A stretch of DNA of 64,000 bases from Candidatus Woesearchaeota archaeon (GTDB lineage Archaea > Nanobdellota > Nanobdellia > Woesearchaeales > JAFCFN01), in contig JAFCFN010000002.1 of the NCBI GenBank assembly GCA_017608625.1, positions 28,099-92,098 of the forward strand, written 5' to 3'. The number at the start of each line of letters is the position of its first letter. Position 1 is the stretch's first letter. The notes beneath the pieces are model-generated. The model was given only the letters and a program-made list of their open reading frames with translations. It ran no database searches and was not told the origin of the DNA. Of the stretch, positions 48,764-53,453 are shown one piece after another. The translations under genes were made by a program, and so were the position numbers.

Positions 48764-49495
48764 ATGGACAAATTACATAATAAATACCTAAGTATCCTTA
48801 AAAAGGAAAAGAAAAAAGTAAATAAAGTTCCAGAAATCATTGAATTAGATAATAAAAAAGATAAAGAAATTATAAAATCTCATATTAAAGAGCACTTTTA
48901 TTATGCTGGTTCTGTTAAAAAAGATCATATTGATGAGTACTTAGATATTAAAAAGACAACAAAAGGTTATGATTGTAAAGTTTTGGTTGAGTGTCATAAT
49001 GGAAAAATAGACAAAAGCTTTTATTTTGAAGTCCATTCTACTGATGAAGAAAAAGCAAGAAATGTACTAGGAAGCTTAGAACCAGGAGAGGAGTTACATA
49101 TTCATATTAAAGGGAAGGATTATCAAGAAGTATCCAAAAAATTAAGTAAATATCTTCCAAAAGAGATTAAAGAAGAAGTAAGTGAGAACGGCTATTCCAA
49201 AGTAAAAGTCAAAATAACAAATAGAGCTGGATTGCATATAAGACCAGTAGGTATGCTTGTTCAAGAAGCAAATAAATATAATGCAGAGATCTATATAACA
49301 TATGAGGATTTGGATCAGAAAGTAGGAAGAAAAATAAATAACAATTATTATGCTGATGCTAAATCAGCTTTAGAGGTATTGCAACTAGGAGCAGGGTATG
49401 GAAAAACTTTAGAGATCATAGCTAAAGGTAAAGATAGTGAGAAAGCATTGAAATCACTTGAAAATCTTGTAAAATCAGGGTTTAATGAAAATTAA
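48764..49495 (+). CDS. Unknown N-terminal domain fused to an HPr phosphocarrier domain
   Basis: C-terminal ITNRAGLHIRP (His15 motif), DAKSALEVLQLG (Ser46 motif) and GKDSEKALKSL. Confidence 0.85.
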   Translation: MDKLHNKYLSILKKEKKKVNKVPEIIELDNKKDKEIIKSHIKEHFYYAGSVKKDHIDEYLDIKKTTKGYDCKVLVECHNGKIDKSFYFEVHSTDEEKARNVLGSLEPGEELHIHIKGKDYQEVSKKLSKYLPKEIKEEVSENGYSKVKVKITNRAGLHIRPVGMLVQEANKYNAEIYITYEDLDQKVGRKINNNYYADAKSALEVLQLGAGYGKTLEIIAKGKDSEKALKSLENLVKSGFNEN

Positions 49496-49548
49496 AAATT
49501 TTTAATTTTTGATTAAAAGTTTTATTTCTAGCAAAACTTATATATATT

Positions 49549-49576
49549 AGTTCGTATAATGAGTATTATACGCATA
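49549..49576. other. dif-like Xer recombination site
   Basis: AGTTCGTATAA-TGAGTA-TTATACGCATA: 11-6-11 layout, inner TAA/TTA arms, CGTATAA/TTATACG inverted repeat; 23 bp upstream of xerA. Confidence 0.75.
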
Positions 49577-49599
49577 AATAATATATAGTATTATCTAAA

Positions 49600-50421
49600 A
49601 TGGATAAAAAAGAGGTTGGGCAAAAGATAGAAACAGAGTTAAAGTTGCAGGGAAAGAGTAAGCAGACAATAAAGATGTACTCTTTCTATAACCTAGGTTT
49701 TCTGGATTTTATTAAAAAAGACCCTGAACAGATTAGAGAGGATGACATAAAACAATATCTAGCAGATTTGCTTGAAAAGGGCAATGATATAGGAACAGTG
49801 GCTTTAGCAAGGTCTGCTTTAAGGTTTTTTTATGATGGAATGCTAAAAAAAGGTATAACTGTTGATATTAAAACGCCAAAAAAACAGAGAAAACTGCCTG
49901 ATGTGCTAACAAAAGATGAAATTAAGGCATTGATCAATGCTGCTGATAATTTAAGAGACAAATTACTTATAGAGTTTATGTATTCTGCTGGTTTAAGAGT
50001 GAGTGAATGCGCTAGTTTAAAGAGAAGTGATTTGAATATTGAGGAAAAAACTGGTTTGTTAAAGCATGGCAAAGGAGGGAAAGATAGGTTTTTCATTTTA
50101 TCAGATAGGCTTACAGAAGACTTAAAACAGTATTTGGCCAACCATAATAATGAGTATATCTTTCCTGTTGAAAACAAGCCTATATCTACAAGAAGAATAC
50201 AGGCTATTGTGCATAAATTAGCAAAAAAAGCAGGCATAAAGAAGAAAGTTTATTGCCATTTATTAAGACATAGTTTTGCAACTCATCTGCTAGAAGCAGG
50301 AGTTGATATTAGAAAGATACAAGAGTTACTTGCACATTCAAATTTGCAAACAACACAGTTTTATACTCAAGTTAGTAAGAAAGAATTAAAGAAAGTTAAG
50401 AGTCCTCTTGACAGTTTATAA
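49600..50421 (+). CDS. xerA: XerA-like tyrosine recombinase
   Basis: R-K-H-R-H-Y catalytic set: GLRVSE, GKGGKDR, HLLRHSFATH, LLAHSNLQTTQFY. Confidence 0.93.
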   Translation: MDKKEVGQKIETELKLQGKSKQTIKMYSFYNLGFLDFIKKDPEQIREDDIKQYLADLLEKGNDIGTVALARSALRFFYDGMLKKGITVDIKTPKKQRKLPDVLTKDEIKALINAADNLRDKLLIEFMYSAGLRVSECASLKRSDLNIEEKTGLLKHGKGGKDRFFILSDRLTEDLKQYLANHNNEYIFPVENKPISTRRIQAIVHKLAKKAGIKKKVYCHLLRHSFATHLLEAGVDIRKIQELLAHSNLQTTQFYTQVSKKELKKVKSPLDSL

Positions 50422-50488
50422 TGTTAAATAGGTTAACAAATAAGCTTTTAAAAGATAGTTTATAAGTTTTAAGTTTTGATTAAAAGTT

Positions 50489-51031
50489 TTAATCTAATAT
50501 TTTTTGATCAAAAGCATCAAGAGTTAATTGTGGTTTTATTTTTACAATATTATGCTTTGTTTGGAGTTGTCTAAAATAAGGGTTTAATTTAAAGTGCATT
50601 CTACCGTTAATTACTCTTTTTATTATAGGTATGCCTTTTTTAATTAGGCTGTCTATATAGTATCTTGCTGTTGATTCTGAGATGTTGTGTAAAGCTGCTA
50701 TATCTGCATAACTTAAGTAGTTCTGTTCTTCCTTGTATATGGTTAAGAATATCTTTTTTTCTTTGTGATTTAGTTGTTCTATTTCCTGTTTTTCTATGTT
50801 TTGGGAGTTTAGGGCTAATTCTAAAGCTTCTAATCTTTCTTCTATTTTTTCTAGTTTTAGAGAAAGTTCAGCTATTAGCTCATAGTTGCTCTCTATTTCA
50901 TTTGTATTTTCGTTAATAGCTGTTAAATGGTCTTCTAATTCCTCTTTTAAGGCATTAATTTCCTCTTTTAGAGAATTATCAAGATTTAAAAGCTGTTTTT
51001 TGCTATTTAAGTCAAGAATAATACTTACCAC
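50489..51031 (-). CDS. Coiled-coil plus winged-helix protein
   Basis: N-terminal heptads, then LSYADIAALHNISESTARYYIDSLIKKG HTH with wing. Confidence 0.8.
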   Translation of the reverse strand: MVSIILDLNSKKQLLNLDNSLKEEINALKEELEDHLTAINENTNEIESNYELIAELSLKLEKIEERLEALELALNSQNIEKQEIEQLNHKEKKIFLTIYKEEQNYLSYADIAALHNISESTARYYIDSLIKKGIPIIKRVINGRMHFKLNPYFRQLQTKHNIVKIKPQLTLDAFDQKILD

Positions 51032-51571: not shown

Positions 51572-51616
51572 TTTTTATTAGAAAATAGTCTTAAATATAT
51601 AAATTTTTTGTATTTT

Positions 51617-51749
51617 TGGGAATATTTTGGGAATATATTGAGACTATTCTGGGAATATTTTGGGAATATATATCGTCGATAAATAATATAAAATTGAGAC
51701 TATTATGAGACCATTTTGAGACTATCTTAGGAATGTTCTGAGAATGTAA
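51617..51749 (+). repeat. 11-bp tandem array, 5+5 units
   Basis: Units start at 51617, 51628, 51639, 51650, 51661 and 51695, 51706, 51717, 51728, 51739; consensus TGRGAMTATTY. Confidence 0.88.
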
Positions 51750-51921
51750 GATAAAACAAAAATAACAATTATTTTTTCAAAAATATGATAAAAATGTTTT
51801 GAAAATTTTGATTTAGTTTTTTGAATTTTTAATTTTTTACAAAAAGTAAGTAGTGAAGTTAAAATTTGAAGTTTAGAAATTAAATGAAGAGTTGATCAAA
51901 GCAGGATGAGTTGTATTTTAA

Positions 51922-52213
51922 ATATAAAGTGAGATTAGGAGGTAGGGGTTTTGGGAAGATAGACCTCTCAGAAGAGTTTTTGATATACAAAAGTGAGAGT
52001 TAAGGTATTAAAAAAAGGTATAGAAAGGGGTTTAAGGCCTTTAAATAGGGCTCTGATATATAAAAGTGAGAGTTAGGTACATGGTCAAAGGGGCTTTTAA
52101 AGGTCTGAAACATGGGTAAGATGGTCCAATATATAGGAAAGTGAGAGTTTAAATATAAGTGGTTGTATGGTTGATGCAGGCAATTGGCCTTTTTTTATAT
52201 AGGAAAGTGAGAA
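51922..52213 (+). repeat. Five same-orientation iteron-like repeats ATATA(N1-3)AAAGTGAGA
   Basis: AAAGTGAGA starts at 51926, 51990, 52063, 52138 and 52204. Confidence 0.88.
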
Positions 52214-52217
52214 TAAA

Positions 52218-53453
52218 CTATAGGAAGGCTGTTAATTTTGGTTGTGTTTTAAGCTTATTCAGGATTTTGCTCCTTTTTAAGATGTAGTCTGCATTAAACC
52301 TGAATCTATGCTGTATAAGCTGCTTTACATAACGTAGCATTTCATTTTTATCCTTAAAAGTGAGAGGTTTAGTGTTTAAGGCCTTTCTAATAGCTGATCT
52401 GCAAACCCACACTCCTAATGGACAGTAGTATTCTCCTGTTATGAATCTTAAAACCAGCGCAGATGCCTGTTTTTTGAGTTTAGAGAGCTTTTCTAGCACA
52501 GATAGTCTTGCTGCATAATAACCGCCTCCTGTTTGCTCTGCATAGGTTTTTCTACCTTCATAAGGCTCATAATCAGTCATAGTTTGTATTTCAGAGCTTA
52601 TATTCCAGCTAGATTTGGGCAGATATGTCTCAAAAAGCTCGTATTGCCATATTTCTGGCATAAATAAAGCTAAATAGTAATTTCCCAAATAAGAGCCAAA
52701 ATAAAGGCTGTAATGCATTTTTTCATAGTTCTTAATGTCTGATATTAGCTTTTTTGCTATAATGTCATCTACAGCTGTTATTGCCCATCTGGTTGGAACT
52801 AGCTTTCTCTGGGTTTTTAAGCCTAAGTTAGCTGTTGACAGTAGTTTAGCTAGTTGATTTTCATCCAAACCATGTTCGTATAATGATATGATTGAATTGT
52901 GAGCCTTCAAATCTTGGGCATCTACAGCCTTCTCTACTATTTTTGGGATTTTGGGATTAGAGGTTATCTTAGCTTGCTTTATTTTGGCATTTGGACCTAT
53001 AGGAAGCAAATATGGAGGAAAATTAAGCTGTGGCTTTGGCTTTTCTTTTAGGTTGATTTCAACATCAACTGGCTTTATTGCCATTGCTATTTCTTTGCTT
53101 ATATCAAGGAGTTTATTGCTCTGTTTTACTTCTAGCTTAAATCTCGAGTTTATTAGGCTAGATCTTAGCTGAATGATTTTTTGTATTTGGAAATTGTGAT
53201 CTGCCCAGTAAGTCTGGGCATCATAAAGCCAAATATCTTGGGTGTTTTCAGGAGGAGCCAATATTCCTATGTTAAGATAAGGATAGTTGTGCCTACCGAC
53301 AAAAATAGAGGGAGAAGCAGAGTAGAACTCTTGCTTTTCTAGTTTATTTTTTATTTTAAAGAATGCGTTTGTTTTGGCTAAAATAGGACAATAGATTCTC
53401 CCACAAAATCCTCTACCTTTGCATTTAAGACACTGGATTTTCATAAAAAACAA
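52218..53453 (-). CDS. nreA: Nre-family DNA repair protein with C-terminal PIP box
   Basis: CLKCKGRGFCGRIYC, RKLVPTRWAITAVD, YYAARL and terminal QPKLTAFL. Confidence 0.9.
   Translation of the reverse strand: MFFMKIQCLKCKGRGFCGRIYCPILAKTNAFFKIKNKLEKQEFYSASPSIFVGRHNYPYLNIGILAPPENTQDIWLYDAQTYWADHNFQIQKIIQLRSSLINSRFKLEVKQSNKLLDISKEIAMAIKPVDVEINLKEKPKPQLNFPPYLLPIGPNAKIKQAKITSNPKIPKIVEKAVDAQDLKAHNSIISLYEHGLDENQLAKLLSTANLGLKTQRKLVPTRWAITAVDDIIAKKLISDIKNYEKMHYSLYFGSYLGNYYLALFMPEIWQYELFETYLPKSSWNISSEIQTMTDYEPYEGRKTYAEQTGGGYYAARLSVLEKLSKLKKQASALVLRFITGEYYCPLGVWVCRSAIRKALNTKPLTFKDKNEMLRYVKQLIQHRFRFNADYILKRSKILNKLKTQPKLTAFL

Follow-up and report, generated by a model that had tools for sequence, protein, structure and literature searches.

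The stretch of DNA analysed here (the window: 64,000 nt, AT-rich with ~30% GC) carries one tyrosine recombinase gene, xerA, and a dif-like element lies upstream of it (Table 1). The codon at 49600 is the first start codon following the in-frame stop. The product matched the Pfam families Phage_integrase (PF00589, 4.8e-46), SAM-like PF13495 (1.2e-14) and PF02899 (4.1e-05), and both its N-terminal SAM-like core-binding domain and its length fit the XerA range of ~270-320 aa. Its top relatives in the PDB were the XerA proteins of P. abyssi (4A8E, 1.9e-53) and T. acidophilum (5HXY, 2.5e-40), with IntI4, XerD and XerH ranking behind both. All 27 aligned homologs have the same six catalytic residues (R133, K158, H220, R223, H246 and Y255), which align to the motifs of P. 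abyssi XerA. The domains, structural relatives and catalytic residues bear out the preliminary description in naming the gene xerA. Its assignment of the host to the DPANN archaea agrees with the archaeal 16S and 23S genes in the window and with the names of the homologs (Woesearchaeota, Nanoarchaeota, Pacearchaeota). Many homologs were found at 57-84% identity, the named ones being Woesearchaeota, Nanoarchaeota or Nanoarchaeia MAGs, and more distant homologs among the matches listed came from Pacearchaeota and Iainarchaeum.

Table 1. Features at the xerA locus (positions in the window) and sites of the same type directly before xerA in relatives (L-numbers).
Feature	Positions	Strand	Remarks
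Upstream copy of 18-nt repeat, TTTTGATTAAAAGTTTTA	49507..49524	none	just past stop codon of HPr-domain gene
TATA-like element TTATATATATT, likely xerA promoter	49538..49548	+	abuts left arm
Left arm AGTTCGTATAA, predicted XerA-binding	49549..49559	none	invariant in window, L112, L114, L124
Central spacer TGAGTA, 6 bp, predicted strand-exchange region	49560..49565	none	varies among relatives while arms are kept
Right arm TTATACGCATA, predicted XerA-binding	49566..49576	none	first 8 nt, TTATACGC, invariant in the four closest lineages
xerA, 273-aa tyrosine recombinase	49600..50421	+	Pfam domains, PDB relatives, catalytic residues
Downstream repeat copy	50474..50494	none	exact 18 nt at 50474-50491; between convergent xerA and HTH gene
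L122 site, CCTTCGTATAA-TGTACC-TTATACGAAGG			directly before xerA
L086 site, AATGCGTATAA-GGTATA-TTATACGAATA			directly before xerA
L082 site, AGTTCGCACAA-TGTATA-TTGTGCGAACA			directly before xerA
L120 site, ATGTCATATAA-TATACA-TTGTACGACAA			directly before xerA
L081 site, ATGTCATACAA-TATACA-TTGTATGACAA			directly before xerA; xerA start codon inside right arm

Housekeeping genes in the rest of the window include those for PAC2, an HPr-domain protein, Nre, L44e, GINS51, an S-layer protein, LonB and Kae1, as well as eIF2-gamma, an SRP54-type GTPase and an Lhr helicase. Relatives at 80-84% identity have the same gene order (DUF498, PAC2, HPr, xerA, HTH, 161-aa ORF, Nre, L44e, GINS), and synteny of xerA with PAC2, HPr, Nre, L44e and GINS was seen in L112-L115 (L-numbers denote xerA loci of relatives, or contigs and loci fetched for comparison). 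The closest PDB relatives and the conserved host-gene order argue that xerA is a chromosomal XerA and not a mobile-element integrase. We rejected the 180-aa HTH neighbour as a recurrent partner of XerA, because its likeness to the HTH protein near xerA in L117 is confined to a short coiled-coil stretch. The product of the gene upstream of the dif-like element (48764-49495) is 243 aa long. Its C-terminal part is a PTS HPr domain (5.1e-25), and its N-terminal extension of 145 aa has a sub-threshold match to a His-Me finger. Such a protein is unusual for a DPANN archaeon, and it is kept in L112.

The 28-bp element and its conservation

Positions 49549-49576 read AGTTCGTATAA-TGAGTA-TTATACGCATA, and the next 23 nt (49577-49599) lead to the xerA ATG. 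The sequence and coordinates given in the preliminary description were exact, as was its account of an 11-6-11 geometry with TAA/TTA inner ends: the element consists of two 11-bp imperfect inverted repeats, as dif sites do. A TAA-N6-8-TTA motif within an imperfect inverted repeat is a feature by which archaeal dif sites are recognised (PMC11840125). The element is identical to E. coli dif at 17/28 positions and to T. kodakarensis dif at 16/28; dif sites of Thermococcales match the bacterial consensus at 14-18/28 (PMC2958812).

The element is intergenic and unique within the window. When up to three mismatches were allowed, the 28-mer occurred once in the 64 kb and never in 100 shuffled copies of the window sequence. 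The two arms match each other at 8/11 positions. Inverted repeats of 11-6-11 form with at least 9/11 matches were no more frequent in the window than expected (30, against 13-34 in shuffles), so dyad symmetry by itself is no evidence for the site. Its support comes instead from the match to a family-specific half-site matrix and from conservation upstream of xerA orthologs, both of which are beyond chance.

Relatives were gathered in several ways. A profile search of genome contigs with the 27-sequence XerA alignment was swamped by bacterial XerC/D and yielded at least 3-5 useful archaeal loci, and a search of metagenome contigs with the single protein yielded about 8 relatives. Most comparative loci were individually fetched contig regions.

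The preliminary description had looked to a conserved motif upstream of xerA orthologs, and such a motif is present, with conserved arms and a variable spacer. In a footprint of the window with L112, L114 and L124, all positions of the left arm (11/11) and 8/11 of the right are unchanged, whereas spacer and flanks diverge; the spacers of the window and these three closest lineages are TGAGTA, TGAGTA, TGCTGA and GGTACA. The whole 28-mer is identical in L112/L113 although the flanks have diverged. Across relatives the arms are kept around TGAGTA, TGCTGA, GGTACA, TGTACC, TGTATA and TATACA. Retained arms with a free spacer are what strand exchange predicts; the spacer need only match between the two recombining partners. 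The left arm, exact or as a variant differing at 1-2 nt, stands upstream of xerA in most orthologs, and the same arm sequence recurs upstream of xerA in unrelated gene neighbourhoods.

We built a half-site matrix from the sites of relatives, leaving out the lineage being tested, and scanned with spacers of 6-8. The window site scored 27.1 (its right arm alone 12.1) and the runner-up in the 64 kb scored 10.5. The best match across the whole locus (2-9 kb) was the site just upstream of xerA in L112, L114, L124, L120, L081, L082, L086 and L122. In L003, L123, L125, L118 and L001 the best match was 0.9-1.3 kb upstream of xerA, and in L084 a matrix site lies 0.5 kb upstream. No matrix site was found in three distant loci of about 50% identity (L002, L087 and L108). 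The half-site pattern matched 43 times in 228 kb of loci, some of them duplicates, and 23/43 matches fell within the 120-nt zones upstream of xerA that make up 1.4% of the sequence scanned.

Some further matches turned up in the course of these scans. The second-best matrix match in the window, with a 7-nt spacer, lies in the codons for the catalytic tyrosine (50343-50371, QTTQFYTQ) and recurs at the same place in most orthologs; it is a coding artefact to be recognised in genome scans for dif. An exact 13-nt copy of the left arm and the start of the spacer, GTTCGTATAATGA, is found inside nre at 52874-52886 and is kept in L112-L114, with no matching right arm beside it. We discounted it as a functional site, as it supplies in-frame codons for SLYEH and coding constraint probably accounts for the copy. 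Several dif-like elements cluster in L003 (2823-2950) and L084 (1264-1330). Those of L003 are a full site (AGTTCGTATAA-TATAGA-TTGTATGACGT), a weaker second one and a lone arm, all within 130 nt; in L084 and L118 the spacer of the sites seems to be 8 nt long. Such elements may have been left behind by integration or duplication at dif. Around the window site, the AT-rich runs TATATATTA and TAATATATA (49540-49588) form inverted repeats that extend the dyad past 28 bp, and a 73-nt stretch folds as RNA at -14 kcal/mol (z = -2.9). The outer inverted repeat is not kept in L112 or L114.

A candidate dif site beside xerA

We read the 28-bp element as the probable dif-type core recombination site of the single chromosomal XerA in an archaeon of the Woesearchaeota/Nanoarchaeota (DPANN) type, and put the probability of this reading at about 0.7. 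The compact xerA/dif module envisaged in the preliminary description is backed by the comparative evidence. What has been observed is the site itself, its uniqueness in the 64 kb, the XerA identity of the gene, the retention of the arms around a free spacer and the linkage to xerA across relatives. By analogy with the P. abyssi and T. acidophilum proteins, one XerA protomer would bind each 11-bp arm, and two sites on a chromosome dimer would synapse. The catalytic tyrosines would cut at the borders of the 6-bp spacer, and two rounds of strand exchange would turn the dimer into monomers with no need for an FtsK-like partner. XerA on the site would also occupy the place needed by TFB and RNA polymerase, giving negative autoregulation. 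Binding, cleavage, dimer resolution and repression by XerA at this site are all predictions from the analysis described here.

The closest known counterparts are the archaeal XerA/dif systems of P. abyssi, T. kodakarensis and T. acidophilum, which likewise combine a single XerA-type recombinase with a 28-bp 11-6-11 site bordered by TAA/TTA. In Thermococcales dif lies apart from xerA (PMC2958812), whereas the dif-type site of the window sits in the xerA promoter. The arms also differ, being GTTCGTATAA in the window and of the TTGATATAA type in Pyrococcus, Thermococcus and Thermoplasma XerA/dif, and the window site is a predicted one. Haloarchaea have a dif-like TAA-N6-8-TTA inverted repeat upstream of a transcription unit that contains xerA, and their dif sites are likewise only predicted (PMC11840125). 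They belong to another phylum and their xerA lies within an operon, whereas xerA of the window stands alone, 23 nt past the site.

The preliminary description had drawn a parallel with XerS/difSL of streptococci. The layout of that parallel holds, since in streptococci and lactococci a single recombinase and its adjoining site also form one module (PMC5357621). The site type and the protein family do not correspond: difSL is 31 bp long with an 11-bp centre, compared with a 6-bp spacer in the window, and XerS represents a distinct, FtsK-dependent family of ~356 aa, compared with a XerA-like protein of 273 aa.

Cre/loxP of phage P1 and the lox-like sites of phage-plasmids resemble the proposed system in that each is a dimer-resolution site for one tyrosine recombinase, although Cre is related to XerA only distantly. 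In an 11-6-11 register, loxP matches the window site at 17/22 arm positions, and the L122 site is closer still. The exact pattern TTCGTATAA-N6-TTATACG occurred in 68 viral contigs (L126-L193), one of them (L189) loxP-like, and many, on contigs of 50-90 kb, share AAAAGTTCGTATAA-N6-TTATACGTACT. The viral contigs are phage-like and about 40% GC. We considered whether they might be archaeal elements and rejected this, as they proved to be ~40% GC phages with lox-like sites; no XerA-like gene was seen beside those sites. The likeness to loxP probably reflects a common dif/lox type of core site.

Modules of xerA and dif have already been reported in archaea (haloarchaea; a 2017 review), so this type of arrangement is known. 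In the literature we came across no study of XerA/dif in DPANN or Woesearchaeota. For the DPANN archaea, which are mostly uncultured and have tiny genomes, a candidate dif consensus is now defined. This consensus is close to AGTTCGTATAA-N6-TTATACGAACW, and its linkage to xerA makes it a landmark for finishing and orienting DPANN genomes. In closed genomes the same consensus can be used to place dif relative to origins. The system would be a compact one, consisting of a 273-aa protein and a 28-bp site.

Arms in xerA promoters and alternative readings

A TATA-like run directly 5' of the arm is not peculiar to the window, being found as well in L112, L114, L124, L082, L116, L117, L125, L001 and L086. 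It ends 1-2 nt ahead of the left arm in the window, L112, L114 and L124, and L112 has no second TATA-like run before the xerA ATG. In archaea, the centre of the TATA element usually lies about 26 nt from the transcription start. This spacing would place the xerA start at ~49566-49572, in or near the right arm, with a leader of about 30 nt. With the TATA element directly before the site and the predicted start in or near the right arm, bound XerA should hinder its own transcription. The public read runs with related sequence were low-coverage metagenomes, none of them RNA, and contained no more than 13% of the words of the region. Contigs at 80% likeness were fragmentary and gave no joint that could be used at the site or the 18-nt repeats, and a scan for bacterial-type promoters and terminators together with an Rfam search returned nothing relevant.

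Five lineages have a single arm between the TATA element and the ATG, 0-16 nt before the latter (L116, L117, L125, L001 and L121). L003, L118 and L084 combine a lone promoter arm with a distal full site. The L116 lineage was also fetched with 10 kb on each side (L194), and the 20.8 kb scanned contained just two strong half-site matches. One was the promoter arm, TGTTCGTATAA, at -17. The other was a full intergenic site, TGTGCATATAA-TGAGTA-TTATACGACGT, which scored 25.6, shares its spacer with the window site and is 8.9 kb away from the start of xerA. Small ORFs of unknown function and toxin-antitoxin-type genes (UPF0175/DUF3368, MazE-like, PBECR2 and DUF2283) crowd the interval between this dif and xerA (10900-20800 of L194), which looks like a variable island beside dif.

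These lineages bear on the suggestion in the preliminary description that the site may also autoregulate. Retention of an arm in the promoter when the full site is elsewhere suggests, indirectly, that XerA binds its own promoter. The abutting TATA element and the retained lone arms thus speak for autoregulation, with repression itself the predicted outcome, and the site plausibly doubles as an autoregulatory operator of xerA. We found no report of XerA autoregulation in the literature. The broader proposition that XerA of the DPANN clade is both recombinase and autorepressor, with the arm an obligatory part of the xerA promoter even where dif lies kilobases away, is speculative and we regard it as doubtful. 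The retained half-sites do predict self-regulated synthesis of archaeal Xer recombinases. What is modestly new here is the retention of a lone XerA-type arm in the promoter when dif is elsewhere.

The same logic is familiar from Tn3/gamma-delta, where res overlaps the resolvase promoter, so that binding both recombines and represses. There the resolvase is a transposon serine recombinase and res has three subsites, and no homology is implied.

The half-site lineages also mean that a XerA-type arm in a promoter is not itself proof of dif, and they keep alive the alternative that the window site is an operator only, with XerA repressing its own promoter there and the working dif lying outside the window. 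In the L194 lineage promoter binding and dif appear separable by 8.9 kb, and the window site overlaps the predicted core promoter. However, the window has a complete 11-6-11 site. Its score of 27.1 is matched or exceeded by no lower bar within the family, the distal L194 site reaching 25.6, and elsewhere in the 64 kb the scores stay at or below 10.5. A free spacer under invariant arms is the expectation for strand exchange, and a regulatory palindrome would need no fixed 6-bp gap with TAA/TTA borders. We therefore consider an operator without recombination unlikely, and prefer a dif-type site that may also regulate its gene.

A second alternative arises from the exact 18-nt direct repeat that brackets site and gene, its copies 967 nt apart (49507 and 50474). 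Integrases with adjoining att sites are common, and xerA might be the integrase of a mobile cassette with an att-type site and the repeats as its ends. Against this, the motif also flanks xerA in L112 and L114, but its two copies differ from each other in both loci. It is palindromic and, in places away from xerA, turns up at the 3' ends of genes. Relatives at 80-84% identity share the gene and its housekeeping neighbours in synteny, the protein is 57-84% identical across many DPANN genomes, its nearest PDB relatives are chromosomal XerA proteins, and the flanks hold no other mobile-element genes. Taken with the chromosomal XerA, these points leave a cassette very improbable.

In the downstream copy, 50478-50494 form a perfect 17-nt palindrome, GATTAAAAGTTTTAATC, which overlaps the stop codon of the convergent HTH gene, and similar palindromes in other loci lie mostly at gene 3' ends. 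The repeat could act as a bidirectional terminator or be bound by a protein, and the upstream copy is not certain to belong to the xerA module.

A chance palindrome in an AT-rich promoter region, with no recombinase-related function, is barely credible: the region is TATA-rich and inverted repeats of like quality are as common in shuffled sequence, but L112/L113 have the identical 28-mer between flanks that have diverged, the arms persist in L114 and L124 and recur upstream of xerA in unrelated neighbourhoods, and 23 of the 43 half-site matches fall in 1.4% of the scanned sequence.

Chromosomal position and the neighbouring non-coding region

The preliminary description had noted that the rRNA operon and the GINS/S-layer block are transcribed towards the site, which it took to fit a replication terminus. 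The orientations are as described (rRNA operon on the + strand at 32.7-37.3 kb, GINS/S-layer block on the - strand at 54-57 kb). The convergence is local: + strand genes resume from 58.7 kb onwards, and to the left of the site there are several - strand blocks. Cumulative GC skew over the 64 kb rises to a peak at 52-54 kb, dips to about 60 kb and rises again, and around the site both GC skew and 4-mer skew follow gene orientation. Archaeal dif sites are often not at 180 degrees from the origin (PMC5357621). No orc1/cdc6 gene was present among the 28 window ORFs scanned against Pfam.

Some 1.2 kb beyond xerA, and 2 kb from the module, lies a non-coding region of ~650 nt (51572-52217) with no match in Rfam. 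It contains five repeats of TTTTGGGAATA with an 11-nt period (helically phased) and another three or four of TGAGACTATTA; ATATA-AAAGTGAGAGTT occurs four or five times, at intervals of about 73 nt. It looks like a set of iterons, an origin or an array of small promoters. If it served as an origin of replication or helped to organise the chromosome, dimers would be resolved beside that region and not at a terminus. The region is conserved in L112 and L114 together with both repeat types, which take the form GGGACTAT in these relatives.
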